Below are positions 3,935 through 62,579 of a stretch of DNA of 64,000 bases, one piece after another; position 1 is the stretch's first letter; each line of letters opens with the position of its first letter. This stretch comes from an uncultured beta proteobacterium (lineage in GTDB: Bacteria > Pseudomonadota > Gammaproteobacteria > Burkholderiales > Casimicrobiaceae), in assembly GCA_963734055.1 (NCBI GenBank), contig CAVTFQ010000005.1, positions 152,940-216,939 of the forward strand, given 5' to 3'. The notes under the pieces were generated by a model. The model saw only the letters and a list, made by a program, of their open reading frames with translations. It did not search any database and had not been told where the DNA came from. A program made the translations under genes and the position numbers.

Positions 3935-6076
3935 ATGTCGGAGATCGCCGAATTCACCCGACACCTCGGCAATTACCTGCCGACGCCTGACATCGCGCTC
4001 GTCGAGCGCGCGTTCCAGTTCTCCGACTCGGCCCACCGCGGCCAGTTCCGCAAGTCCGGCGAGCCCTACATCACGCATCCGCTCGCGGTGGCGAGCATCC
4101 TGTCGCAGTGGCGTCTCGACGCGCAGGGGCTCGCCGCCGCCCTCCTCCACGACGTGATGGAGGACACGGCGATCACCAAGGCGGAGATCGAGTCGTCGTT
4201 CGGCAAGCCGGTAGCCGACATGGTCGACGGCCTCTCCAAGCTCGACCAGATCGAGTTCACCTCGCGCGAGGACGCGCAGGCGGAGAGCTTCCGCAAGATG
4301 CTGCTCGCGATGGCGCAGGACGTCCGCGTCATCCTGATCAAGCTCGCCGACCGGCTGCACAACATGCGGACGCTGGACGCGATGGCGCCGGTCCACCGCA
4401 AGCGGGTGGCACGCGAGACGCTCGACATCTACGCCCCGATCGCGAACCGGCTCGGGTTGAACGCCCTCTACCTCGAGCTGCAGGATCTCGCGTTCAAGCA
4501 CCTGAACGCGATGCGCTACCGGATCCTGGCGAGCGCGATCAAGGCGGCACGCGGCAACCGGCGCGAGGTGATGAACCGGATCCTCGACGTGATCCGCGAG
4601 GGCTACACGAAGGCCGGCATCACGGCCGTCGTGACCGGCCGCGAGAAGACGATCTACTCGGTCTACAAGAAGATGCGCGAGAAGCGCTACACGTTCTCGC
4701 AGGTGTTCGACATTTACGGCGTGCGCGTGCTCGTGCCCGACAAGACCGCGTGCTACGCGGCGCTCGGCGTGCTGCACGGCCTCTACAAGCCGATCCCGGG
4801 CAAGTTCAAGGACTACGTCGCGATCCCGAAGGCCAACGGCTACCAGTCGCTGCACACGACGCTGTTCGGTCCGTTCGGCACGCCGCTCGAGGCGCAGATC
4901 CGCACCCACGACATGCACCGGATCGCGGAAGCCGGCGTCGCCGCGCACTGGCTCTACAAGTCGGGCGGAGCGCTCGACCTGGCGGAGGCGCAGCGCGAGA
5001 CGCACCGCTGGCTGCAGAGCCTGCTCGAGATCCAGTCCGAGTCGCGCGACTCGAAGGAATTCCTCGAGAACATCAAGGGCGACCTCTTCCCCGACGAGGT
5101 CTACGTGTTCACGCCGAAGGGCAAGATCATGGCGCTGCCGCGCGGCGCCACCGCGGTCGACTTCGCGTACGCGGTGCACACCGACATCGGCCACCACTGC
5201 GTCGCCGCGCGGATCAACTACGAGCTCCTGCCTCTGCGCACCGAGCTCAAGAACGGCGACCACGTCGAGATCCTGACCTCGCCGACGGCGCGACCCAATC
5301 CGTCATGGCTGTCGTTCGTGGCCACCGGCAAGGCACGCTCGCGGATCCGCCACTTTCTGAAGGGACTCCAGCAGAAGGAGTCCGCCGCGCTCGGCGAGCG
5401 GCTGCTCGCGCAGGCGCTCGCCGCGCTCAAGGTCGCGCCGGAAGCGATCACCTGGGACCGGTGGGATGCGCTCCAGAAGGAATACGGCGCGAAGAGCCAG
5501 CTCGAGCTCCTGGCCGACATCGGCCTCGGCAAGCGCCTCTCGTTCGTCGTCGCGCAGGCGCTCACGCGCACGGCGGGGAAGACTACCGAACCGGGCGCGG
5601 AGCCGTCGGCGCCCCTCGGCGTCAAGCCCTCCGCGCTGACGCTGCGCGGCGTCGAGGGCGTCGCAATCCAGTACGCGCGCTGCTGCCGCCCCATCCCAGG
5701 CGACGCCGTCGTCGGCCAGTTCCGCAAGAGCCAGGGCCTGCTCGTGCACACGCGCGAGTGCGTCACGCTGCGCAAGCAGCGGCCGGATCCCGAGCAGCTG
5801 ATCGACGTCGAGTGGGCGCCCGACGTCCAGGGCGAGTTCGACGCGGGCGTTCGGCTCCTCGTCTCCGACCGCCGCGGGCTCCTGGCCGACATCGCGCTCG
5901 CGATCGCGGACGCGGGCGCCAACATCGACAACGTTTCGATGGAGAAGCCGGACGGTGCCGGCCTGATCGCGATGTTCTTCAGCGTTCAGGTCAAAGATCG
6001 CCGCCAGCTCGCGCACGTGATGCGCGCGATCAAGCGGGTACCCGAGGTCCGCCGCATCCACCGCGCGCGGACGTAG
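3935..6076 (+). CDS. spoT: bifunctional (p)ppGpp synthetase/hydrolase, RelA/SpoT family
   Basis: 713 aa with HD hydrolase motif HRGQFRKSGEPYITHPLAVA and synthetase motif KDYVAIPKANGYQSLHT. A TGS-like segment (VFTPKGKIMALPRGATAVDFAYAVH) and a C-terminal ACT-like region are also present. Confidence 0.9.
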   Translation: MSEIAEFTRHLGNYLPTPDIALVERAFQFSDSAHRGQFRKSGEPYITHPLAVASILSQWRLDAQGLAAALLHDVMEDTAITKAEIESSFGKPVADMVDGLSKLDQIEFTSREDAQAESFRKMLLAMAQDVRVILIKLADRLHNMRTLDAMAPVHRKRVARETLDIYAPIANRLGLNALYLELQDLAFKHLNAMRYRILASAIKAARGNRREVMNRILDVIREGYTKAGITAVVTGREKTIYSVYKKMREKRYTFSQVFDIYGVRVLVPDKTACYAALGVLHGLYKPIPGKFKDYVAIPKANGYQSLHTTLFGPFGTPLEAQIRTHDMHRIAEAGVAAHWLYKSGGALDLAEAQRETHRWLQSLLEIQSESRDSKEFLENIKGDLFPDEVYVFTPKGKIMALPRGATAVDFAYAVHTDIGHHCVAARINYELLPLRTELKNGDHVEILTSPTARPNPSWLSFVATGKARSRIRHFLKGLQQKESAALGERLLAQALAALKVAPEAITWDRWDALQKEYGAKSQLELLADIGLGKRLSFVVAQALTRTAGKTTEPGAEPSAPLGVKPSALTLRGVEGVAIQYARCCRPIPGDAVVGQFRKSQGLLVHTRECVTLRKQRPDPEQLIDVEWAPDVQGEFDAGVRLLVSDRRGLLADIALAIADAGANIDNVSMEKPDGAGLIAMFFSVQVKDRRQLAHVMRAIKRVPEVRRIHRART

Positions 6077-6390
6077 CTCCCCGTTCCGGATCGACGTCGA
6101 ATCCTGCCCGGTCACCGAGCGAGCCGCTTCGAGTTGATCCCTCGCGATCTCTCCGTTCGCATCACCGACGGCTGACCTTGCGCGACCCGATGGGTCGCAA
6201 ACCGTCGGCGAGCCCGATGCCGGCATGCAGCACCGACGGCGACTGAAAGCCGGCTCGCTCGGGCCCATCTCGCGCCCCCATGCTTGGCATGCCCCTTGCT
6301 TAATAGGCCCGTCGAGGGGCGTGAGCCATGCATTCGGCTTTCGGGCCCCGCCCCAGAAGTCATTGACCAACAACCAAAAGGACTTTGACC

Positions 6391-6918
6391 ATGCGTAATC
6401 GTACCCTGCTGGGCGCGGCGGTCGCCGCTGCGCTGGCGGTCTCGCACGGCACCGCGCAAGCGGCGACGGCGGGTCCCGCCAATTTCAATGTCACCGCGAC
6501 GGTCGCCAACTTCTGCACGATCTCGGCTGCGAACGTTCCGTTCGGCAGCGTGAGCGCCGGCGCCGCCGCCACGAACACCGCGAACAGCGTGACGCTCACG
6601 TGCAACAAGGGAGCGACGGTGTCCTCGGTCGCGCTCAACAACGGCTCGAACCCCGCCGGTACGCAAAAGCGGATGACGAACGGTACCGACACCCTGAACT
6701 ACAACATCGACGTTCCGACGGGGGCCGCGTTCAACACGTGTCCCGCGGCGGGCGCCGGCCCCGAGTGGAACGCGACGAACACCATCGTGGCGACGTCGTT
6801 GTTCACGGCGACCGGAGGACCGAAGCTCATCAACCTCTGCGCTTCGATCCCCGCGGGCCAGTATCCGTCGGCAGGTGCCTATTCGGATACGGTTCAGGTC
6901 ACCGCGACGTACAACTGA
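6391..6918 (+). CDS. SCPU-domain (Csu-type) fimbrial subunit, copy 1
   Basis: Signal peptide ...SHGTAQA, FNVTATV..FCTIS pattern and C-terminal YSDTVQVTATYN. ATG 6391 is preceded by AAGGA 8 nt upstream; the ORF-track start at 6385 is a TTG. Confidence 0.8.
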   Translation: MRNRTLLGAAVAAALAVSHGTAQAATAGPANFNVTATVANFCTISAANVPFGSVSAGAAATNTANSVTLTCNKGATVSSVALNNGSNPAGTQKRMTNGTDTLNYNIDVPTGAAFNTCPAAGAGPEWNATNTIVATSLFTATGGPKLINLCASIPAGQYPSAGAYSDTVQVTATYN

Positions 6919-6995
6919 CCTCGCCCGCGCAGCGAACCCGAGCCTCTGCGGCCTGACGAACGCCGGGGCCCGCGGATCGCACTGCGGCCCTCACC

Positions 6996-7562
6996 ATGAA
7001 CGGCGGATCGGCGCCGGCCTCGACTCTCGTCGCGGCCGTGCGGACACCTACGCGCATCGTCGCGACGGCGCTCGCCGCCGCGCTTGCCTGCGGCGCGGCG
7101 GAAGCGGCGTCGACCGGGCCGTCGAACTTCAGCGTAGCGGTCTCCCTCGCGAACCGCTGCACGATCTCGGCCACGAACGTGGCGTTCGGCACGATCAGCG
7201 CCGGCGTCGCCTACTCGAACACCTCGGGCAGCGTCCGGCTCACCTGCAACAAGGGGGTGAGCGTGCCGTCGGTCGCGCTCAACAACGGCCAGAACGCCGT
7301 CGGTACCCAGAAGCGGATGCGGCGCGGCGCGGAGCGCCTGCCCTACAATATCGACGTGCCGACGGGCACGACGTTCAACACGTGTCCCGCGCCCGGCGCG
7401 GGTCCCGAGTGGAACGCGGCGAACACGATTGCCGCGACCTCGCTGTTCGCGACGACGGGCGGGACCAAGAACATCACCCTGTGCGTGTCCATCCCTGCGG
7501 GCCAATATCCGCTCGCGGGCAACTACAGGGACACGGTTCGGGTCACGGCGACCTACAACTGA
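6996..7562 (+). CDS. SCPU-domain (Csu-type) fimbrial subunit, copy 2 (paralogue of copy 1)
   Basis: Mature region aligns to copy 1 at roughly 60-65% identity by eye (…NKG.SV.SVALNNG.N..GTQKRM…YNIDVPTG..FNTCPA.GAGPEWNA.NTI.ATSLF…). The start codon is uncertain; an in-frame GTG at 7038 is possible. Confidence 0.75.
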   Translation: MNGGSAPASTLVAAVRTPTRIVATALAAALACGAAEAASTGPSNFSVAVSLANRCTISATNVAFGTISAGVAYSNTSGSVRLTCNKGVSVPSVALNNGQNAVGTQKRMRRGAERLPYNIDVPTGTTFNTCPAPGAGPEWNAANTIAATSLFATTGGTKNITLCVSIPAGQYPLAGNYRDTVRVTATYN

Positions 7563-7581
7563 GGGGCGGTCGGAGGGCAGG

Positions 7582-8304
7582 ATGACGGCGGGTCTTCGTG
7601 CACTGGCCGCGACGGCGCTGCTCGCGTTGTCGCTCGACGTCCTCGCGGCGACGTTCGGCCTCACGCCGATGCGCGTCGAGCTCTCGGCCGCGTCGCCGAC
7701 CGCGATCGTCACCGTCAACAACGCGGGCGACGCCCCGGTCACCGTCCAGGTCCAGTCCTACACGTGGTCGCAGCCCGAGGGCAAGGACGTCTACGACGAG
7801 ACGCGCGGCTTCATCGTGAGCCCGCCCATCTTCACGATCGCGCCCGGCGCGAGCCAGATCGTGCGTGTCGCCCTGCGCGGGCAGCCGCCCGCCGACGTCG
7901 AGGCCGCCTACCGGCTCATCTTCCGCGAAGTGCCGCCGGCCGAGGAGACCGCCGGCGAGCGAACGCTGTTCCGGATCGCGCTCAACATGAACATTCCCCT
8001 GTTCGTGGCGCCGACCGGCGTCGCGTTGTCGCCCAGGCCCGCCTTCGGCGTCGAGACCGGCTTCGACAAGTCGTGGCGGCTGCGCATCGCCAACGGCGGC
8101 AACGGCAATCTCCGGCTGGCGCCGCTCACCGTGCGGCAGGGCGAGGACCAGCTCGCCCACGAGGACGTGTTCGTCGTCCTCCCCGGGGCGACGCGCTACA
8201 TCGCGCTGCCGAAGGAGCGGGTGAAGGCGGGAATACCCTTGCGCGTGGAAGCGCAGAGCAATGGCGGCCGCATCGACCTCGCCCTGCCCGCGGCCAGTCC
8301 CTGA
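7582..8304 (+). CDS. fimbrial (PapD-like/CsuC-like) periplasmic chaperone
   Basis: Signal peptide MTAGLRALAATALLALSLDVLAA, then LTPMRVEL... and the AYRLIFREVP motif. GGAGGG lies 5-10 nt upstream of ATG 7582. Confidence 0.8.
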   Translation: MTAGLRALAATALLALSLDVLAATFGLTPMRVELSAASPTAIVTVNNAGDAPVTVQVQSYTWSQPEGKDVYDETRGFIVSPPIFTIAPGASQIVRVALRGQPPADVEAAYRLIFREVPPAEETAGERTLFRIALNMNIPLFVAPTGVALSPRPAFGVETGFDKSWRLRIANGGNGNLRLAPLTVRQGEDQLAHEDVFVVLPGATRYIALPKERVKAGIPLRVEAQSNGGRIDLALPAASP

Positions 8305-10762
8305 GGGCGCGCGACGTGCGCTCGCCGCGGTCCTGCTGGCGATGGCGTTCCCGGGGGCGGCGTCCGCTGCGGCTGACATCGCGCCGAGCCGCGGGGAAGC
8401 TCCGTCGCAGATTGCGCTCGCCGAGGCGATCGCGGTCCTGTCGATTGCGGTCAACGGCGCCTCGGAGCCCGGGGTCGCGTATGTCGTGCTCGACCCGAAG
8501 GGATTGATGGTCGACACCGGGACCCTGACGCGGCTGCAGCTCGCGTGGCGAGATTCCGACGCGGTCCCGCTCGAGGGCCGGGCATACGTGCCGTTGCGCG
8601 CATTGCGCGGCGTGCGCGCCACCGTCGACGACGTGGCGCAGCGGATCGACTTCGACATCGACCCGGATCTTCTCCCGGCTTCACGGGTGCGGTTCGGACT
8701 CCCGCCGCCAGAGCTGCCTCGGAGCCCCGCGTGGGGCGGATTCTTCAACTACTCCGTCTTCGGCCAGAGCGCGACGGGCGGCAATTTCGCCACCAGCTTC
8801 GGCGATTCGATTTCGGGCGCATTCGAGGCGGTCGCCTTCGGGCCGGCGGGCACGCTCGGCGCGACGTTCATCGCCAATTCGGCGTCCGCCGTCGATGCCG
8901 GCGCCGAGAACGTGGTGTTGCTCGACGCCGGCTGGCGTTGGGACGACCCGGCAAAGCTCACGACGCTGATCGTAGGGGATGCGATCACGGCGCCCGGCTG
9001 GTGGGGCCGCGCCGTGCGGTTCGGCGGCGTCCAGTACAGCTCCAATTTCTCGCTGCAGCCCGGATACGTCACCTATCCGCTGCTGACGGTGTCCGGCATT
9101 TCGTCGGTGCCGACCGCGGCCGAGATCTACGCCAACAACATGCGGATGGGAAGCCAGGCCATCCCGCCGGGACCGTTCTCGATCACCAACGTCCCCGCGC
9201 TCACCGGCGCGGGGGAGCTGCAGGTCGTCATCACCAACGCGTTCGGGCAGCAGCAGGTGATCACGCAGCCGTTCTACGTGACGAGCCAGCTCCTGAAGCC
9301 CGGCCTGAGCGAGTTCTCGTTCAGCGCCGGCGCCGAGCGCTTCAATTACGGCTTGAAGACGGGTGACTATCAAGGCTTCGTGGGTTCGGCGTTCTACCGC
9401 TACGGCGTGAACGATCGGTTGACCGTCCAGGCGCGCGCGGAAGGTGACGACCACGTGCGGGGCGCGGGCGTCGGCGCCGACTACGTCGTCGGATACCTCG
9501 GCGTGCTGAGCGCGGGCGTCGCGGCGAGCAGCACGAGCGGCGGCGTCGCGGGCGCGACCGGATCGGGACAGCGCTATCTGGTCGGCTTCAGCCGCCAGGC
9601 GTACCTCGCGAGCTTCGCGATCCAGTCGACGTGGGCGACTCCCCGGTACCGCGAGATCGGCGACACGACACTCCAGGAATCACAGCTCACGCGCGCGACG
9701 TTCAACTTCGCGCTGCCCGGCCAGGCCGGCTCGCTCGCCTTGGCCTGGAGCGGACAGCGCTTTCGCGACACGGCGCCGCCGGACCCGGTCGGCGTCTCGC
9801 GCAGCGGCTCGCTCAACATCTACACGGCGACGTACGCCGTGGGGCTCGGCCGCTTCGGCTATCTCACGCTTTCCGCGTCGAAGGCGCAGGGACTCTCGAA
9901 CCAGTCGCAGCTGCTCGCGCTCTACACGCTGCCGTTCGGAACGACGAGCACCGGCCCTGCCGACACGACGATCACGCTCGGCGCGGAGCGGACCCACGGC
10001 GACGGTCAGTCGAACACCTACGGGACGTTCGACCTGCAGCATCCGCTTCCGGTCGGCACCGGATGGGGCTACTACGCGCATGCGCAGACGGACGACAACT
10101 ACACGGCCGGCGTCTCCTACTACGGCAATCACGCCCGATACGCGGCCGACGCCTCCTATGCCAACGGCGTGAGCGCCGTACGCGGCGCGATCGCCGGCGG
10201 CATCGGCACGGTCGGCGGCCACGCGTTCCTCGCTCCCCCGATCGACCAGAGCTTCGCGCTCGTGACGGTCGGCGACATCGCCGGGGCGCGCGTGCTGCAG
10301 GAGAACAACGACGTCGGCCGCACCGGTGCCGACGGCACGCTGATGCTTCCGCGACTGCCGTCGTACACTCCGGTGAACATCGCGATCGATCCGGCCACCG
10401 TCCCGCTCGACGCGACCGTCGGGCAGACCGTGCAGAGGGTGGTACTGCTGAATCGGACGGGCGTCGTCGTCAGCTTCGATTCGCGCCGCGAACGCAGTGC
10501 GCTCTTGCGCCTCGTGCTGCCCGACGGGACGCCGCTGCCGGCGGGCGCGGTCGCGCGCGTCGCGGGCAGGGCCGAACCGTATCCGGTCGCGATGGGGGGC
10601 GAGGTCTATCTCGCCAACCTGTCGGATCGCCAGGACGTCGAGATCACCTATCGCGGCCGGACGTGCCGCGTTGCCGTCGAACTGCCGAAGGATGCGGCGC
10701 CCGTTGCCGATCTCGGTCCGTTCGTCTGCGCGCTGCACGCAGCCGCCGGAGAACAACCATGA
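8261..10762 (+). CDS. fimbrial outer-membrane usher (CsuD-like)
   Basis: 833 aa with a signal peptide ...AMAFPGAASA, sitting between the chaperone and a further SCPU subunit. Overlaps the chaperone 3' end. Size and position are typical of ushers. Confidence 0.7.
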   Translation: MAAASTSPCPRPVPEGARRALAAVLLAMAFPGAASAAADIAPSRGEAPSQIALAEAIAVLSIAVNGASEPGVAYVVLDPKGLMVDTGTLTRLQLAWRDSDAVPLEGRAYVPLRALRGVRATVDDVAQRIDFDIDPDLLPASRVRFGLPPPELPRSPAWGGFFNYSVFGQSATGGNFATSFGDSISGAFEAVAFGPAGTLGATFIANSASAVDAGAENVVLLDAGWRWDDPAKLTTLIVGDAITAPGWWGRAVRFGGVQYSSNFSLQPGYVTYPLLTVSGISSVPTAAEIYANNMRMGSQAIPPGPFSITNVPALTGAGELQVVITNAFGQQQVITQPFYVTSQLLKPGLSEFSFSAGAERFNYGLKTGDYQGFVGSAFYRYGVNDRLTVQARAEGDDHVRGAGVGADYVVGYLGVLSAGVAASSTSGGVAGATGSGQRYLVGFSRQAYLASFAIQSTWATPRYREIGDTTLQESQLTRATFNFALPGQAGSLALAWSGQRFRDTAPPDPVGVSRSGSLNIYTATYAVGLGRFGYLTLSASKAQGLSNQSQLLALYTLPFGTTSTGPADTTITLGAERTHGDGQSNTYGTFDLQHPLPVGTGWGYYAHAQTDDNYTAGVSYYGNHARYAADASYANGVSAVRGAIAGGIGTVGGHAFLAPPIDQSFALVTVGDIAGARVLQENNDVGRTGADGTLMLPRLPSYTPVNIAIDPATVPLDATVGQTVQRVVLLNRTGVVVSFDSRRERSALLRLVLPDGTPLPAGAVARVAGRAEPYPVAMGGEVYLANLSDRQDVEITYRGRTCRVAVELPKDAAPVADLGPFVCALHAAAGEQP

Positions 10763-55646: not shown

Positions 55647-56678
55647 TCAGCTTGTGACCATAGCCGGTTGGTAATCAGTGCCGTTCCTCAACATCGCCCA
55701 AGCGATGCGCGTGGTCTTATTGGCCATCGCTACTACCGCAACGTTGGGGTGGCGACGCGCCGCCAGCCGGGTTGCCCATTGACTGAGTGGGTCGTCCTTG
55801 TCTTTGGAATGGTGGATTACCGAGCGAGCACCGTGAATCAGTAGCGCCCGCAAGTATGCGTCGCCGCGTTTGCTAATTCCCAGCAATCGCTCCTTACCGC
55901 CCGAGCTGTGCTGCCTGGGCGTCAACCCGAACGCCGCGGACATCTGCCGCCCGTTAACAAACTGTTCGCCGTTGCCTACCGACGCCACCAACGCGGTGGC
56001 AATGATCGGTCCCACTCCGCGCAACTGCTGCAGCCGCTTGGCCGTCGGGTCGCTTTGCGCAATCATCGCAATTTCGCGGTCGAGTTCCGCCATCCTCTCA
56101 TCGAGCGTCCGCAGATCGTCCCACAGCCCATTTAGGAGTCGCCGGAACCGCGCACTCAGGCCGTTCTCCGCATCCTCCAACCAACAGGGCAATGCCCGCC
56201 GCAAATGCAATAACTCTTTGGGCGCCACTAACCCGTACTCGGCGACCAGGCCGCGAATCTGGTTGGCCTTGGCCGTGCGTTGCTTGGTCAACTCGGCACG
56301 GATGCGGTGCACCGCTTGAATGTCCTGTTGCGCCACCGTCTTCACCGACACAAACCGCATGTGCGGCCGACTCATGGCTTCACAGATCGCCTCGGCATCG
56401 TTGGCGTCGTTCTTGTTGCTCTTTACATACGGCTTTACAAACTGCGGCGCGACCAACCTCACCTTGAATCCTTGCGCCTGCAGTCCACGAGCCCAGTAAT
56501 GCGCACCACCACACGCCTCCATGCCAATCTCGCAGCCCGGTTCAACCGTCTCGCGCAATACCTTCAGCCAGTTCTCCCGCGAGAGCTTTCGCCGCCACAC
56601 CGCTTTCTCGTTCCGGTCTACGCCGTGCACCTGGAACACGTTCTTTGCCAAATCTACCCCAACGCGAATAAGCTTCAT
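55647..56678 (-). mobile_element. IS110-family transposase/recombinase gene (element ends not defined)
   Basis: 343 aa with DEDD-type N-domain (GVDLAKNVF, GMEACGGAHYW, KNDANDAEAI) and C-terminal SSGGKERLLGISKRGDAYLRALL. AAGGAG precedes ATG 56678. Confidence 0.9.
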
Positions 56679-57022
56679 GACGGACTCCTTCTCCCGGTTG
56701 ACTGGTGGATGACACTTCCAGTCTGGCACCTCGATGCCGTTTAGGTGAGGAGGGGTCCATCCCATTGCTATCGGCCAGAACCAGTCGTAGCGATTTGCTG
56801 CAAGCATCGCTTCTTTCAAAGGCCGCCAACAGTCGTGATGCAACCACCGGGTCCGAAGGTCGAGTCGACGTTGTTGTTGCCGAGCGAGAAACGGGACTGG
56901 GATACGCGCGCCTCACCCTTGGCCGTCTTTGGGCCGGTAGCAGGCCAGCGCGGCGGCGGAGTCACCGAAGGGGCAGTCGGAAAAGCTGGTGTACTCATGC
57001 GGGACCGGTTCCGGACGGCGGC

Positions 57023-59698
57023 CTAGCTAGGAGCGGGAGCGCGGCCGGTCCCGTGGCGGGTCCCGGGCCGCTGGGCCGTGGGAAGGACACCGGACGGGCG
57101 GCGGCTCAGGTAGCGAAGCGCGAGTTCGACGGCCAAGCCGGCGGTCATCGCCGTGCCGTCGCGCTCAAACCGCTCGAAGTCATCGCCTAGCGCGAGGCGG
57201 CCAGCGTCGGCCAGCGCTAGCTCCTGCGACGACAGCAAGGCATCGAGCAACCGCTGGATCCTTGCACCCGCCCGATGCACCGTGCCGAGCAGCGTCGCGC
57301 CGTGGCTGAACTCGCTCTCCCGAAAACACAGCATAGCCACACTTCGCAGGCCTAGGGCCAGTTCCAACATGTCGTCCGACTGTGCATTGGACAGCAGCGA
57401 GGCCCGCAACAGAACCCGCGCCGCCGCGTGGTTCCCCCGGCCGGCCTCGATGTCGCCCAGGCATCGCAGGATCGAGCTCTCGATCATCGCTTCGCCGGCT
57501 TCTCTGGCCAGCCCCAGCGCCCGGCGGAGGTGACCTTCCGCGGTGTCGTCGGCTTCGATCATCGCAAGCACGCCCCGGTACAGCGTCGCTAGGGCCAGGT
57601 TCGGCCGGTGTCCGACCCGCGCGTAGCCGGCGAGCGCGAGTTCGAGGTGTTCGCGCGCGACCGCGGTCTGGCGCCTGGCCAACGCAACCCGGGCGATGCC
57701 GTAATGTGCATTCGCCGTCAGCTTGGCGTCGCGCGCGTCCGAAGCGAGGGATATCAGCCGCGAAAACTGACGTTGGGCGCCATCAAAGTCGCCAAGGACG
57801 TACGACAAGTGGCCGATGTCCGAAACCACCATCGCCTCGGCCGCCGGCATCCCCCGTTCCCTGAAGAGCGCCAGCGCTTCCTCGTAGAACGAAGCCGCCT
57901 GATCGAGGTTGCCGACGTAGGTTGACAGTGCGGCGGCTGCCCACAGTGTGCTCGCGATCGCAGCTGGGTCCGAGCCCGGGCGCCGACCGGCCAGCGCAAG
58001 CAGACAGGCCTGGAGCCCTTCCTGGCGATGCGAGCGACTTATCCAGTACAACCTGAGCGCCGCACAGAAGCGCAGCCCCGCCGCATGCCCATCCAACGAC
58101 TGCGAGGTGTATAGCAACGCTGCGTGGATGTTCTGGTGCTCAGTCTCGATCTCCTGAAACGACAGGCCCCAGTTCGCGGACGAGGCCGCTTGGGCGATGT
58201 GCTGCTTCTCCACCAGGGCCAAGAAGTGGTCGCGATGCTGGCGCCGGGCTTGCGAGGCCCGCTCGACGTCGGCCTCGAGTTGTTCGAGGCCAAATTCCCG
58301 AATCACCTCAAGCATGCCGAAGCGGGTGTGCGCCGCCCGGACGAAGCTCTTCCTGACCAGGCTCTCGATGGTGTCCAGATTGACGCCGAAGACCGCCTGG
58401 GCCGTCCCGTGGGTCCATCCGCCGGCAAATACCGCCAGCTGACAGAATGCCACGCGCTCGGCCGGGTCGAGCAATTCGTAGCTCCAGTGGACGGTCGCGC
58501 GCAGCGTGCGGTGTCGATCCGGCACGTCGTCGACTGAGGCGCTCAGGAAGTACAGGCGGCCCTCGAGCCGCGAAAGCAGGTCCGAAGGACCGAGCACCAC
58601 TGTCTTCGCAGCCGCGAGTTCGAGCGCCAGCGGCACATGTTCGACGCGCCTGCAGACGGCGACGACCGGTTTCGTCTTGTGTATGACAACGCCCGCCGCC
58701 CGCGCTCGGGCGCAGAACAGCGCGATCGCCTCGGACTCGGCAAGAGGCTCGACTGCAAAGCGCCATTCCGAGGTCACGCGCAGCGGCGAGCGGCTCGTCA
58801 CGATGATGACGAGGTTGCTGCATCGCCGGACCAAGTCGCCGACGAAGCCGGCAGCGCCCTGCAGATGCTCGAAGTTGTCGAGCACGAGCGCACATCGCCG
58901 CTGGCCGATGAACTGCACCAGTTCGCCATGTGCCCCGATCACTTTGGAGATCGCCTCGGGCACGAGTTGCGACTCGCCGATCGCCACAAGATCGATCCAC
59001 CACAGACCTTCCGGATAACGCGCTGCCCGGCGCCGCGCCAACTCCATGGCGAGTCGGGTCTTGCCGATACCGCCGGGGCCGGTCAAGGTCACCAAGCGAG
59101 CCCCATCGGTGTCCAAAATCCGATTGAGCGCGGCCAGCTCCCGGACTCGGCCGACAAAGGTCGTGGAGGTCGTCGGCAGGTTGGACCGTCCCAGGCTGGC
59201 GACGGGCGCGAAGGGCTTGGATCCGACCTGGTACAGATGGATCGGTTCGACGATGTCCTTGAGCTGGTGCAGGCCGAGGTCAGTGACATCGCAGCTAACC
59301 AGCTCGCGCGTGCTCCTTGATATCAGGATCTGTCCGCCATGGGCCGCAGCCGCAATGCGTGCCGCGCGATGCACGTCTATCCCTATGTACTCGCCACTCC
59401 ACCGCTCGGCATGGCCCGTGTGCATGCCAATCCTGACCTGGATCGGCTTGTCGTCCAGTTCAGCCTGGATCTGCCTGGCTGCGTCTACAGCGTCGAGCGC
59501 GCTTAAGAAGACGACGAAGAATCCATCGCCCGCGCAATGCACCTCTTGACCGCCTCGACGAACGAGCACCTCGCGCACCAGCTCCTGCGTCCGAATCAGC
59601 TCGTGCTGGCCGTCGCGCCCCTCATCCTGGATCAGCGCGGTCGATCCCTTGACGTCGGTGAACAGGAACGTGAGGGTTCCAGAGGGAAGTCCTGACAC
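57023..59698 (-). CDS. class III nucleotidyl cyclase domain - STAND/AAA NTPase - TPR-repeat protein
   Basis: 891 aa with cyclase motifs TLTFLFTDVKGST, CAGDGFFVVF, IRIGMHTGHAE and IGIDVHRAARIAAAAHGGQILIS. Walker A LTGPGGIGKTRLA, Walker B-like CALVLDNFEH, and ~450 aa of TPR-like helical repeats. GTG start with GGAG 7 nt upstream. Confidence 0.8.
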   Translation of the reverse strand: MSGLPSGTLTFLFTDVKGSTALIQDEGRDGQHELIRTQELVREVLVRRGGQEVHCAGDGFFVVFLSALDAVDAARQIQAELDDKPIQVRIGMHTGHAERWSGEYIGIDVHRAARIAAAAHGGQILISRSTRELVSCDVTDLGLHQLKDIVEPIHLYQVGSKPFAPVASLGRSNLPTTSTTFVGRVRELAALNRILDTDGARLVTLTGPGGIGKTRLAMELARRRAARYPEGLWWIDLVAIGESQLVPEAISKVIGAHGELVQFIGQRRCALVLDNFEHLQGAAGFVGDLVRRCSNLVIIVTSRSPLRVTSEWRFAVEPLAESEAIALFCARARAAGVVIHKTKPVVAVCRRVEHVPLALELAAAKTVVLGPSDLLSRLEGRLYFLSASVDDVPDRHRTLRATVHWSYELLDPAERVAFCQLAVFAGGWTHGTAQAVFGVNLDTIESLVRKSFVRAAHTRFGMLEVIREFGLEQLEADVERASQARRQHRDHFLALVEKQHIAQAASSANWGLSFQEIETEHQNIHAALLYTSQSLDGHAAGLRFCAALRLYWISRSHRQEGLQACLLALAGRRPGSDPAAIASTLWAAAALSTYVGNLDQAASFYEEALALFRERGMPAAEAMVVSDIGHLSYVLGDFDGAQRQFSRLISLASDARDAKLTANAHYGIARVALARRQTAVAREHLELALAGYARVGHRPNLALATLYRGVLAMIEADDTAEGHLRRALGLAREAGEAMIESSILRCLGDIEAGRGNHAAARVLLRASLLSNAQSDDMLELALGLRSVAMLCFRESEFSHGATLLGTVHRAGARIQRLLDALLSSQELALADAGRLALGDDFERFERDGTAMTAGLAVELALRYLSRRPSGVLPTAQRPGTRHGTGRAPAPS

Positions 59699-59782: not shown

Positions 59783-60049
59783 CTAAGCCCCTTGGGAAAG
59801 GCCGATCCAGATCTTCGGCATGTGGCCGCCCTCGTTGTCAAAGTTCCAGATCTGCGTCGACCACGCGTCGAGGTTGCGCAAGATCTCTTCGTTCGATGGT
59901 AGGTTGATGCCGCCAGGCGGAATCGATGCCGGATCGACCTTGATGCCAGCGGCGCCGAGAACGCCAACGGGATCGGCGATCAACTGGTCACGGTATTTTG
60001 CGTCGGTGGCGATTCGATACAGCAGGTCTCGGATCGTGGTCTGTTCCAT
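59783..60049 (-). CDS. 88-aa NHLP/Nif11-like candidate precursor peptide
   Basis: The leader-like helix TIRDLLYRIATDAKYRDQLIADPVGVLGAAGIKVDPASIP is followed by Gly-Gly at residues 46-47 and 74-75, and a C-terminal tail HMPKIWIGLSQGA. AAGGA lies 8 nt upstream of the ATG. Nested between the dehydrogenase and cyclase genes. Confidence 0.6.
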   Translation of the reverse strand: MEQTTIRDLLYRIATDAKYRDQLIADPVGVLGAAGIKVDPASIPPGGINLPSNEEILRNLDAWSTQIWNFDNEGGHMPKIWIGLSQGA

Positions 60050-60098
60050 GTGAACTATCCTTAGCGATCAGAAAGAGGGCGAAGAGACCGATCGGCCG

Positions 60099-61298
60099 CT
60101 AGGACCGGCGATCGACGACGAAGTCTTCGGTCTTGAACTGAAGCCGGTCGTCGTCCGCGTCCGGTATTCCCAATCCGTTGATGCCCACCGCGGCCTCGCG
60201 CAGCGGATCCAAGCCAAGGCGGTCGGCGATATCGCCGTCGTTGATCGCCGACGTGAAGAAGGCGCCCAGGCCAAGGTGCGTGGCCACGATGTACAGGGTC
60301 TGGCTCAGATGGCCTGCATCGAGCAGCACGGCCTTGTAAGCCTTCTTGTGCCCCGGGTACTTCCAGAAGTTGCGGTCGAACCGCGCGACTTGGATCAGCA
60401 AGGCATGGGCATCCGCGAAATATGCTTGGTTGGCCAAGAACAACCGCGCCAATTCGCGCGCCTGCGCAGCGTCCAGCGCCTCCAGCAACACAAGGCCATG
60501 CGAGTCGGCTTCGTAGTGGTACAGCCCCGGACACACAGACTCGACATTGAGAACCAAGACGAAGGCATCAAGCGGATGCATCGCCCCCGCCGAAGGACTA
60601 GTGCGTCTGATCGCGGAGATCTCGTCCGTGATCCGCCGGATTCCCTGGACCCCAAACACCGCGTGGAGCGCGTACTCCAGCGACCTCCGCGGAAGCGCAA
60701 CGTCGGTGCGGAATGCACGCGTGGTGCAACGCAGGCGCAGCCTGGCCAGCCAGTCGTCGCGCAGGTCCGGCATGTCGAGCACGATGCGATCCGGCCCGCG
60801 CGAGCGGTGTGGGAAATGCGTCGGCGGCATTCCCCGCTTCCTGATCATTGCTGTTAGCGACTCGCCGCCCTGTTCGTCGCCGGGCCGCTGTACCGTCGAA
60901 TCGATGCCGCGCCAACGAGTGTGCGCGTGAAAGACCCCTGCCAGGTCGTCCCACCAGGCCGCATCCATCCCGGCCTCCTGCTCGGCGAGCCGAGGCCAGC
61001 CCTCGCTCGGGGGGTCGGACATCAGGACACCCCGGCGCGCGAGTTCGAGCAGCCTGGGACGGATCGACGCGTCTCCGGCGGCGATCTCCTCGAGCGCCGT
61101 CCAGGCGTGCACACTGACGCGAGCCAAGAGCGGAACGTCGTCGGCATCAAAGGCGATTGCCTCGCCGGTGAGCGGGCACAGCAACTCGCAGCGCAACTCG
61201 GTGCGCAGTGACATCTCGCCGCGGAAGAAGCGCTCGAAGTCCAGAACGTATTCGTCCCGGATCCGGAAGGTGCAGTTTCTTCTTCGTCGCAGCCGCAT
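60099..61298 (-). CDS. SagB/ThcOx-type (nitroreductase-fold) dehydrogenase with a ~185-aa N-terminal extension
   Basis: RCTTRAFRTD, RRTSPSAGAMHPLD, CPGLYHYEADSHGLVLL, FWKYPGHKKAYKAVLLDAGHLSQTLYIVATHLGLGAFFTSAINDG. Confidence 0.8.
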   Translation of the reverse strand: MRLRRRRNCTFRIRDEYVLDFERFFRGEMSLRTELRCELLCPLTGEAIAFDADDVPLLARVSVHAWTALEEIAAGDASIRPRLLELARRGVLMSDPPSEGWPRLAEQEAGMDAAWWDDLAGVFHAHTRWRGIDSTVQRPGDEQGGESLTAMIRKRGMPPTHFPHRSRGPDRIVLDMPDLRDDWLARLRLRCTTRAFRTDVALPRRSLEYALHAVFGVQGIRRITDEISAIRRTSPSAGAMHPLDAFVLVLNVESVCPGLYHYEADSHGLVLLEALDAAQARELARLFLANQAYFADAHALLIQVARFDRNFWKYPGHKKAYKAVLLDAGHLSQTLYIVATHLGLGAFFTSAINDGDIADRLGLDPLREAAVGINGLGIPDADDDRLQFKTEDFVVDRRS

Positions 61299-61723: not shown

Positions 61724-61758
61724 GTAAGCGTCAGCCCGAGGCCGTCTTGACGCTCAGA
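61724..61758. repeat. candidate terminal inverted repeat (tnpC-distal end) of the IS66-family element
   Basis: GTAAGCGTCAGCCCGAGG... begins with the GTAAG typical of IS66-family ends and reads inward toward tnpC. The partner end would lie beyond 64000. Confidence 0.35.
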
Positions 61759-61983
61759 GGGTAAGTCTCAGCGTTAATCGAACACTTTTTTGACATTGGT
61801 GTGTCATTGTCGAATCGTTTGCTGCATACCGTGAGCAGCAACACAAAAATAGTACAAACGGGTTTTGTAGAGGGAAATCATGACGCCTCGATCGTTTTTC
61901 GGCGGCTCAATACTCTCTTTGCAAGATCGGGGTGTTCGACTAACGCTGAGACTCAAGTGTTCGGTTAACGCTGAGACTTACCC
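61759..61983. mobile_element. 225-bp MITE with IS66-like ends
   Basis: 29-bp TIRs GGGTAAGTCTCAGCGTTAA(T/C)CGAACACTT (28/29). Direct repeat GCTCAGA (CGCTCAGA if one terminal base is reassigned) lies immediately outside both ends. AT-rich interior without an ORF, and a subterminal repeat TAACGCTGAGACT. Confidence 0.6.
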
Positions 61984-61985
61984 GC

Positions 61986-62579
61986 TCAGACCTTAAAGCG
62001 CCGTAGGCTCTCGTTGACTGCGGCAGGGTCGAAGGCCGCGGGATCGAAGGCGCCGCCGCACCACTCGAGCATGGCGTCGTGCTCTTCGTGGGCGGGGTCC
62101 CGGATCGCCGCGAGGAAGTCTTCGTATCCGGGTGGTCCGCCCACGTCCTCGGGCGGGCAGGCATTAGCTCCGTCCAGGCATTGCGGCAACTGCAGCGCAG
62201 GATCGGCCGGCAGAGTCTTCTCAACGCTGACCCGATGCTCCCAGCCGTCGCCGAAGTCGTAGAGGTAGATGAATGACTTGCGCGCGCCCAGGGCGACGGC
62301 GAGCGTGAACCGATCGTCGCGTTGCACCCGCGGCGGCGTGTCGAAGTCCGGATCGGGCTCGCCGTAGTGGTCGTGGCCGATCACGAACTCGTGCAGGTGT
62401 CCCCCAGCCCAGCCCATCGTCCAGAGCAGCACGGCGTGGAGCTTGTGCAGCTTGATCGACCCCGGTACCAGGACGCGCCGCCAGATCGTCGGGCTGACAT
62501 CGAGCAGCTCGATGCGCAGCTGGTAGATCGGAGCGGCGGTCTTGGTGGCGCGCAGTGGCGCCTTGCGCGCGACGGCCAT
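61986..62579 (-). CDS. plasmid pRiA4b ORF-3-like family protein (passenger ORF of the IS66-family element)
   Basis: IYQLRIELLDVSPTIWRRVLVP and YLYDFGDGWEHRV. ATG 62579 lies 3 nt after the transposase stop. Confidence 0.8.
   Translation of the reverse strand: MAVARKAPLRATKTAAPIYQLRIELLDVSPTIWRRVLVPGSIKLHKLHAVLLWTMGWAGGHLHEFVIGHDHYGEPDPDFDTPPRVQRDDRFTLAVALGARKSFIYLYDFGDGWEHRVSVEKTLPADPALQLPQCLDGANACPPEDVGGPPGYEDFLAAIRDPAHEEHDAMLEWCGGAFDPAAFDPAAVNESLRRFKV

Follow-up and report, generated by a model that had tools for sequence, protein, structure and literature searches.

A candidate leader-guided substrate for an orphan SagB-type flavoenzyme in a betaproteobacterial three-gene cassette

What is the role of a small, cysteine-free protein with a leader-like N terminus that is encoded next to a flavoenzyme of the azoline-oxidase type? 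The question is raised by positions 59783-60049 of a 64,000-nucleotide (nt) stretch of contig CAVTFQ010000005.1 from an uncultured betaproteobacterium (hereafter the window, with positions counted from its first letter), where three genes lie on the minus strand in the order dehydrogenase, small peptide and large partner, separated by gaps of 49 nt and 84 nt, respectively. An earlier reading made from the letters by themselves (the sequence-only reading) had taken the small open reading frame (ORF) for a precursor peptide with two Gly-Gly cleavage sites and an atypical hydrophobic tail. Our analysis shows that the ORF is a genuine gene, and we consider it probable, at roughly 60%, that the small protein it encodes is a leader-guided substrate of the orphan, azoline-oxidase-like SagB-type flavoenzyme beside it. 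The elements of the cassette are as follows:

59783..60049, minus strand: candidate precursor gene for an 88-residue small protein of the NHLP clan (stop codon 59783-59785), supported by the ORF, homologues, hidden Markov model (HMM) matches and substitution bias
60058..60062, minus strand: Shine-Dalgarno sequence AAGGA, 8 nt 5' of the ATG, read from the sequence
60099..61298, minus strand: SagB-related flavin mononucleotide (FMN) dehydrogenase (TIGR04511), 399 residues, supported by HMM, AlphaFold2 (AF2) and fold matches
57023..59698, minus strand: partner protein of 891 residues with Pfam domains Guanylate_cyc, AAA_16/NB-ARC and TPR_12

The ORF translates exactly as had been claimed, into 88 residues (MEQTTIRDLLYRIATDAKYRDQLIADPVGVLGAAGIKVDPASIPPGGINLPSNEEILRNLDAWSTQIWNFDNEGGHMPKIWIGLSQGA) with Gly-Gly at 46-47 and 74-75, positions that leave 41 and 13 residues downstream. 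The leader string that had been quoted as residues 4-44 is present, although its true span is residues 5-44, a trivial difference, and the last 13 residues (HMPKIWIGLSQGA) do include His, Pro, Lys, Trp and one Ser. No Cys occurs in the 88-residue peptide. Like the window gene, its counterpart at L001, the closest genomic relative (an uncultured betaproteobacterial metagenome-assembled genome), has a Shine-Dalgarno site (GAAGGATATTTCAC). GC content at codon positions 1, 2 and 3 of the ORF is 0.58, 0.43 and 0.74, matching the coding pattern of the genome, and comparison with L001 showed 29 base differences, 21 of them at codon position 3, the changed codons being 17 synonymous and 8 non-synonymous. 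This substitution pattern shows the ORF to be under purifying selection. Metagenomes yielded 10 homologues of the peptide with 59-91% identity. Because it has a Shine-Dalgarno site, a coding GC pattern, a third-position and synonymous bias and these 10 homologues, we conclude that the small ORF is a genuine gene. A search of the window with the subfamily profile detected no second copy of the peptide.

Profile searches then identify the clan to which the peptide belongs. Its match to NF038399 is sub-threshold but specific (E = 8e-6). Against TIGR04509 (NHLP-related RiPP peptide, RiPP denoting a peptide that is made ribosomally and modified after translation) it scores 24.3 bits (E = 2.3e-5), without reaching the cut-off of 34, residues 3-60 being aligned with profile positions 4-65 of 87. 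The match to TIGR03793 (16.7 bits, E = 0.005) covers residues 7-42 only and does not reach the cut-off of 50.9, while TIGR03795 gave no match to the peptide. P0009, P0131 and P0133, which belong to the same subfamily as the window peptide, likewise stay under the TIGR04509 cut-off; bona fide TIGR04509 peptides encoded beside homologous dehydrogenases pass it at 41-67 bits. A profile of the window subfamily alone nevertheless detects the peptides of L013 (8e-17), L004 (6e-13), L018 and L042. As judged from these alignments, the N-terminal domain of the peptide is homologous to that of accepted TIGR04509 members, of which the peptide is a divergent relative. The sequence-only reading had recognized an NHLP-leader pattern in this N-terminal part, and it was right to do so, given the matches to NF038399, TIGR04509 and TIGR03793 and the recovery of TIGR04509 peptides by the subfamily profile. 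NHLP motif 1 (xAWxDxEFKxxLLxx) corresponds to RIATDAKYRDQLIAD in the peptide, an alignment made by eye that falls inside the HMM-aligned stretch and in which Thr stands where the motif has Trp; in PMC2887384 the motif is described as common to the nitrile hydratase alpha subunit and NHLP.

A family-wide alignment of 79 distinct peptides separates the protein into two parts, of which the second carries a motif specific to the window subfamily:

59858..60049, minus strand: residues 1-64, candidate conserved helical leader or docking domain, from the family alignment and AF2
59786..59857, minus strand: residues 65-88, C-terminal tail and candidate core (TQIWNFDNEGGHMPKIWIGLSQGA), variable family-wide and of low predicted local distance difference test (pLDDT) score
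59798..59818, minus strand: tail motif P78-K-I80-W81-I-G83-L84, subfamily-invariant, from the subfamily alignment

Residues 1-64, which contain NHLP motif 1 (RIATDAKYRDQLIADP), a loop with G46-G47 and the LPSNEEILRNLD helix, can be aligned in ~100% of the 79 peptides, with a conservation of 1.05-2.6 bits per column. Family-wide, residues 49-56 reach 2.4 bits per column, and L50 and P51 within this block are invariant. AF2, supplied with an alignment of 11 sequences, predicted helices at residues 3-15, 17-25, 27-33, 53-58 and 60-71 with pLDDT values of 74-90. In the tail, pLDDT falls to 59 and then to 42, and occupancy of the family alignment is only 0.08-0.40 over residues 65-88, which means that this part is not alignable. 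Conservation stops at ~residues 62-64 (…LDAWS), where a stretch resembling NHLP motif 2 (LPSNEEILRNLDA, aligned by eye) comes to its end without a Gly-Gly. Taken together, the homology to motif 2 and the end of family-wide conservation would place the boundary between leader and tail near residues 62-64.

Tails of the family range from 14 to 49 residues (median 23), fall into classes that differ by clade and have a high content of Ile, Val, Leu, Phe and Trp, many of them closing with a hydrophobic or aromatic run (WVIFCR, IILFKV, EIFFAL, VVVVFTI, HWIGFLGN, FWVGFVGQ). Tails with a W-hydrophobic-G pattern resembling that of the window occur in L051, L053, P0131 and P0134. The 24 residues of the window tail include no Cys, one Ser and one Thr; over the 79 peptides, Cys, Ser and Thr together make up 13.6% of tail residues versus 11.1% of leader residues, which is no enrichment, and Cys is found in 15/79 tails. 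The earlier description of the tail as poor in Cys, Ser and Thr is confirmed by these window and family counts and, with no cyclodehydratase present, a chemistry other than that of the thiazole/oxazole-modified microcins (TOMMs) is plausible. Within the window subfamily, P78, I80, W81, G83 and L84 (PxIWxGL) are invariant in 11/11 sequences and conservation of the tail comes close to that of the leader (2.7-3.0 versus 3.5-4.0 bits), the sole variable patch being residues 69-77, which include the second Gly-Gly. The expectation of a conserved leader followed by a hypervariable core is thus borne out for the family as a whole, where conservation covers residues 1-64 and does not extend to 65-88, but fails within the window subfamily, where the tail is nearly leader-like. 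For cross-linking through Trp, His or Lys, which had been offered as a possible modification, we found no evidence, and H76 is not conserved.

Cleavage at Gly-Gly, as considered in the sequence-only reading, was examined at both sites and rejected. G46-G47 belongs to a loop of the conserved leader domain, after which comes the LPSxEEI(L) helix found throughout the family. G74-G75 is confined to the nearest relatives, being present in 4/11 aligned subfamily sequences (the window and 3/10 homologues) and in L001, and any Gly-Gly at all occurs in 8/79 family tails. The number of such dipeptides is moreover at chance level, since 9 Gly in 88 residues give an expectation of 0.91, with P(≥2) = 0.23. 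Neither a C39 peptidase nor an exporter was found near the peptide gene in the neighbourhoods inspected.

With 316 bits the dehydrogenase exceeds the cut-off of 240 set for TIGR04511 (putative peptide maturation dehydrogenase), and with 112.9 bits that of 78.4 for TIGR03605 (SagB domain). It consists of a family-specific N-terminal domain of ~130 residues followed by a nitroreductase fold, modelled by AF2 with a pLDDT of 91. Its nearest solved relatives, by sequence profile and by fold, are ThcOx/CyaGox, BmdC, McbC and an uncharacterised protein from Anabaena. Two motifs stand out:

60357..60365, minus strand: W312-K313-Y314, Lys-Tyr motif, K313 and Y314 invariant in 33 sequences
60717..60731, minus strand: R190-C-T192-T-R194, RxTxR motif, with R190, T192 and R194 invariant in 33 sequences

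The WKY of the dehydrogenase aligns with the FWKY of ThcOx/CyaGox, and we take K313-Y314 to be the Lys-Tyr motif of azoline dehydrogenases, next to the flavin; work by Melby et al. in 2014 is said to have found this motif to be needed in TOMM dehydrogenases. From general knowledge of nitroreductases, RxTxR is presumably a motif of the type that binds the flavin phosphate (FMN). In both fold and motifs the dehydrogenase is azoline-oxidase-like. In the AF2 model the N-terminal domain runs through strands at residues 2-5, 10-19, 31-40 and 47-50 and helices at 52-60, 69-72 and 77-88, and then adds a further strand and two helices. A RiPP recognition element is a leader-binding winged-helix domain built from a three-stranded sheet and three helices, and the predicted order of elements in the N-terminal domain is compatible with a PqqD-like domain of this kind.

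Do the three genes belong together? Among about 186,000 species-representative genomes, at least 556 encode a relative of the dehydrogenase. We collected 80 genomic loci with such relatives, the locus counts given here being on 81 loci. At least one adjoining peptide was found in 63/81 dehydrogenase loci with the subfamily profile and one iteration, and all-versus-all clustering of ORFs placed a large cyclase/TPR partner in 69/81. The order dehydrogenase, peptide, cyclase/NB-ARC/TPR protein is the same in L001, L083 and L084. In three further metagenomic loci, the gene directly downstream of the dehydrogenase encodes a peptide relative with 30-42% identity and adjoins the gene for a TPR protein of 780-843 residues. 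Equivalent small ORFs at homologous loci, which the sequence-only reading had proposed to look for, are thus present in 63/81 loci and in these three metagenomic loci. The three genes are found together across phyla, in ordinary chromosomal surroundings, and no other gene family is shared across the 81 loci apart from local synteny (isocitrate lyase, a YifB-like gene). Neither YcaO nor docking genes group with the dehydrogenase anywhere in the 81 loci, and none lies near the window cassette. Neither the clustering of the 81 loci nor inspection of L081, L082, L083, L085 and L086 revealed a conserved protease or exporter, and in the window no ABC export or cleavage system is found within 8 kb of the cassette.

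Several loci carry more than one peptide gene. L009 has an array of four near-identical copies (7616-9001), L005 has two copies (7493-9096), L034 of Lysobacter soli has four paralogues (4105-6095) whose tails read GL(D/N)QTxPxLD with a basic end, and L057 of Aquimonas voraii has five paralogues with different tail classes. At L082 of Coralloluteibacterium thermophilus a gene of the S9 prolyl-oligopeptidase type lies directly upstream of the dehydrogenase and is co-directional with it (5843-7900). It could be a lineage-specific maturation protease; it is probably coincidental, because no such family was conserved in the clustering of loci. P0154 (769 residues) and P0162 (236 residues) contain three to four tandem NHLP-like modules, each repeat of P0154 ending in a Cys/Gly-rich motif (…ELLCANGGPCG), and these two proteins may be multi-core precursors of another RiPP family.

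The third gene encodes a protein that combines domains of signal transduction:

59201-59686, minus strand: class III cyclase-homology domain, residues 5-166, from Pfam, with Protein Data Bank (PDB) matches to Ma1120 and Rv1900c
59057-59080, minus strand: P-loop of the STAND NTPase, GPGGIGKT, from Pfam and sequence
57389-57946, minus strand: TPR region, ~residues 585-770, from Pfam

A scan for transmembrane (TM) helices found none in the partner. Compared with Ma1120, its cyclase-homology domain retains the metal-binding residues D15 and D58 and the Arg, with His53 in place of Lys and His110 in place of Asn, and the relative at L083 has the same His replacements of the substrate-specifying Lys and the transition-state Asn. 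With these substitutions, the domain may have an unusual catalytic activity or act solely in regulation. AfsR is among the PDB sequence matches to the P-loop region, and HaaT, a TPR protein of a cyclophane RiPP system, gave a weak NCBIfam match. True TIGR04510 proteins at related loci score 707-847 bits; the window partner shares with TIGR04510 the cyclase domain only, at 28% identity over 190 residues.

Across the loci this large partner family (~880 residues) occurs in three architectures: one with a cyclase domain, a single TM helix and a TPR body (TIGR04510, mostly in Xanthomonadales); one in which the same TPR body is combined with a single TM helix and a Ser/Thr kinase (Acidobacteria, L053); and one with a cyclase domain, STAND NTPase and TPR but no TM helix (Actinobacteria and the window subfamily). 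At L053 (7246-10170) the output domain has been swapped, a Ser/Thr kinase replacing the cyclase ahead of the TM helix and a TIGR04510-type TPR body, and L051 (7216-9615) has, by sequence inspection and TM scan, an apparent truncated kinase N terminus. The peptides of L053 and L051 end in HWIGFLGN and FWVGFVGQ, which resemble the IWIGLS of the window. In L001 (7571-10220) the cyclase/STAND/TPR gene is present as two overlapping ORFs of 378 and 672 residues; this split is probably a frameshift, reflecting either a long-read assembly error or a pseudogene. A swappable signalling output on a constant repeat domain resembles, by analogy, the design of receptors and regulators, and the large partner is probably a regulator or sensor.

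The setting of the cassette in the window differs from that of its surroundings. Between 54300 and 64000 GC content is 0.60-0.65, compared with ~0.70 elsewhere, the drop starting at ~54 kb, and GC at third codon positions is 0.72-0.85 in this segment, with 0.74-0.81 where the three genes sit, and 0.88-0.95 in the rest of the window. This segment is bordered by mobile elements:

55647-56843: IS110-family transposase gene, one flank of the cassette segment
61986-63967: PRiA4_ORF3 gene and IS66 transposase gene, the other flank of the cassette segment

The remaining neighbours in the window are insertion sequence (IS) elements and metabolic genes, and the segment looks like a horizontally acquired island. 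A non-coding stretch of ~690 bp upstream of the dehydrogenase gene contains a 35-nt inverted repeat, 91% complementary, with arms at 61753-61787 and 61955-61989 (167 nt apart), and a 22-nt direct repeat at 61932/61957; the repeats at 61753-61989 may be an element resembling a miniature inverted-repeat transposable element or an IS end. The possibility that the gap separating the peptide gene from the partner gene holds an RNA element or attenuator was considered and rejected, the fold of this intergenic sequence being no better than that of shuffled sequences (z = -0.28). No Rfam matches were obtained in the 54-64 kb region and no promoter-like sites were seen. Six matches to a terminator-like consensus, against a mean of 2.2 (sd 1.6) in shuffles, lie mostly inside coding sequence.

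How would the three products work together? If the small protein is indeed the leader-guided substrate, the dehydrogenase would bind the conserved peptide domain through its family-specific N-terminal domain and oxidise the peptide by way of its flavin, with removal of 2 H or multiples thereof. This would most probably happen in the tail, where I80-W81-x-G83 would be the obvious candidate site, and the large signal-transduction partner would control the cassette or sense the product. We infer here the role of the peptide as substrate, the site and type of its modification and the role of the partner, and the product of the peptide may be the ligand of that partner. Since there is no cyclodehydratase and no Cys, the modification would be neither thiazole/oxazole formation nor azoline-to-azole oxidation. 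A bolder form of the proposal, which we advance only tentatively, holds that a YcaO-free SagB-type enzyme adds a new modification to a hydrophobic aromatic tail, for example Cα-Cβ desaturation or another two-electron oxidation at Ile-Trp-x-Gly, and that the product is an intracellular or auto-signalling ligand read by the cyclase/kinase-TPR protein. If this were true, the cassette would represent a new RiPP class tied to second-messenger signalling and widespread in soil Proteobacteria, Actinobacteria, Acidobacteria and Myxococcota.

A number of observations weigh against the peptide being such a substrate. An azoline-type oxidase has no obvious substrate when no ring-forming enzyme accompanies it, and no single residue is common to all family tails on which a shared chemistry could act. 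The release of a mature product is not accounted for by any protease or exporter. The peptide lies below the TIGR04509 cut-off and the partner gave no match to TIGR04510 at E ≤ 1. The N-terminal domain, for which a confident helical structure extends to ~residue 71, is predicted to fold alone, and the near-uniform conservation within the subfamily would also fit a small structural or adaptor protein. A full-text literature search under the family names, which was not exhaustive, found no experimental study of TIGR04509, TIGR04510 or TIGR04511 members.

Several of these points are shared by a different explanation, in which the small protein is an unmodified, folded adaptor or ligand whose hydrophobic tail docks in the TPR region of the partner or on the dehydrogenase, the three proteins forming a signalling module and the dehydrogenase acting on some other small molecule. 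TPR domains commonly bind C-terminal or short hydrophobic peptides, the partner accompanies the dehydrogenase in 69/81 loci with a receptor-like, swappable output (cyclase or Ser/Thr kinase), conservation is high along the whole peptide within the subfamily, AF2 confidently models its N-terminal domain as helical and the neighbourhoods inspected contain no protease or exporter. We nonetheless regard this explanation as rather unlikely. The dehydrogenase is of the peptide-modifying SagB/ThcOx/McbC clade and has kept its Lys-Tyr motif, and multi-copy peptide arrays with divergent tails are typical of precursors and unusual for a stoichiometric subunit. The NHLP clan, as described in PMC2887384, otherwise consists of leader peptides. 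The peptide might alternatively be a substrate modified in its conserved part, for instance at L50-P51-S52, with the tail serving as effector or for targeting or receptor specificity. In its favour, conservation that holds for every tail class is confined to residues 1-64, and one conserved enzyme acting on a conserved site would be chemically parsimonious. In characterised RiPPs, however, the conserved part is used for recognition and the enzymes act on a C-terminal core, as is generally known and as PMC2887384 indicates, and the LPS segment is predicted to lie within the folded domain, so that we hold modification at this site to be distinctly improbable.

A classical NHLP/TOMM precursor, from which the leader is removed at Gly-Gly and whose core is heterocyclised by a remote YcaO and then oxidised by the SagB-type enzyme, would account for the type of the enzyme, whose closest solved relatives are all azoline oxidases, and a distant YcaO is conceivable inasmuch as precursors and enzymes can be encoded far apart (PMC2887384). 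Several findings speak against it: the peptide has no Cys and a single tail Ser, family tails are not enriched in Cys, Ser and Thr (13.6% versus 11.1%), one Gly-Gly is not conserved and the other is inside the conserved domain, the 81 dehydrogenase loci show no clustered YcaO or docking gene, and the TIGR03793 score is 16.7 bits against a cut-off of 50.9. We consider such a precursor very unlikely. The lower-GC, IS-flanked position of the cassette, the STAND/TPR architecture of the partner and a marginal match to PycC (E = 0.004, 14.6 bits) could instead suggest an anti-phage defence island in which a STAND NTPase is joined to a cyclase effector and the small ORF is an accessory or an artefact. 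PADLOC, however, gave no meaningful match for any of the three proteins, the cassette recurs across phyla in ordinary chromosomal contexts and the small ORF is under purifying selection, and we give this explanation hardly any credence.

The reading of the small protein as a substrate of the dehydrogenase has consequences for the enzyme clade. If the peptide is the substrate, the chemistry must be new for that clade, as the peptide partners do not have the residues that every characterised SagB-type enzyme needs, and the pairing with a cyclase- or kinase-TPR protein hints at nucleotide signalling under the control of a peptide. If the peptide is instead an unmodified adaptor, the standing annotations "RiPP peptide" and "peptide maturation dehydrogenase" would be corrected. 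The dehydrogenase family is common and many of its carriers are culturable strains of Lysobacter, Oleiagrimonas and Aquimonas, while the window subfamily offers a clean test case, with one precursor, an invariant seven-residue tail motif, a soluble partner and three genes in all.

How, finally, does the cassette compare with known systems? In its flavoenzyme it is closest to the azoline oxidases ThcOx/CyaGox (5LQ4, 8PZ5), McbC (6GOS) and BmdC (7LY4), which share the nitroreductase/SagB fold and provide the best sequence and structure matches; like ThcOx, the window dehydrogenase has an extra N-terminal domain ahead of the flavin domain and aligns its WKY with FWKY. It differs from these enzymes in having only 17-24% identity to them, a domain at its N terminus that is family-specific and no azoline-forming partner, and its substrate cannot be a thiazoline because the peptide has no Cys. 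A functional analogy may be drawn to the cyclodipeptide oxidase AlbA/AlbB, a nitroreductase-fold flavoenzyme that desaturates the Cα-Cβ bond of Phe, Leu and similar residues, given the abundance of Ile, Val, Leu, Phe and Trp in the tails of this family. AlbA/AlbB, however, acts on diketopiperazines and not on peptides that bear a leader, the cassette has no AlbB-like gene and no cyclodipeptide oxidase is among the top 50 fold matches of the dehydrogenase. The partner, for its part, is reminiscent of MalT/AfsR-type regulators and RRNPP receptors, in that a P-loop STAND NTPase with TPR is encoded beside what would be a biosynthetic pair; unlike them it has no DNA-binding domain, its output being a cyclase-homology domain with two His replacements.

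Among peptide families, the NHLP and NHLP-Burk TOMM precursors (TIGR03793 and TIGR03795) of Haft, Basu and Mitchell 2010 (PMC2887384) resemble the window peptide in their long leader related to the nitrile hydratase alpha subunit, short suffix and SagB-type dehydrogenase, and in motif 1, where the window has RIATDAKYRDQLIAD and NHLP has xAWxDPEFRDELLAD. NHLP-Burk clusters, according to that paper, go without motif 2 and Gly-Gly, have suffixes of ~11 residues and include a large Ser/Thr kinase gene; the NCBIfam name for this kinase family is TOMM system kinase/cyclase fusion protein (TIGR03903). What sets the window apart from NHLP and NHLP-Burk systems is that it has no cyclodehydratase or docking protein, no terminal Gly-Gly, no core rich in Cys, Ser and Thr and no linked ABC exporter.

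The closest parallel is the set of companion families TIGR04509, TIGR04510 (putative peptide modification system cyclase) and TIGR04511 in NCBIfam/TIGRFAMs, a curated bioinformatic prediction. At real loci TIGR04509 peptides and TIGR04510 proteins adjoin homologues of the window dehydrogenase, and the window matches this cassette in its passing TIGR04511 enzyme, an adjacent peptide that aligns over its N-terminal 60 residues, an adjacent large class III cyclase-homology/TPR protein and the absence of a cyclodehydratase. It departs from the cassette in its tail, which is ~10 residues longer and carries the invariant PxIWxGL, whereas tails of typical TIGR04509 members consist of Gly, Ala or Ser, three hydrophobic residues, Phe and two to three further residues; it departs also in its partner, where a STAND P-loop NTPase takes the place of the TM helix of TIGR04510. 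NCBIfam/TIGRFAMs has thus already catalogued this kind of system and annotation pipelines already name it, and what is new at the window locus is a sub-cut-off peptide with a longer tail and a motif of its own, together with a soluble cyclase-STAND-TPR partner in place of TIGR04510.

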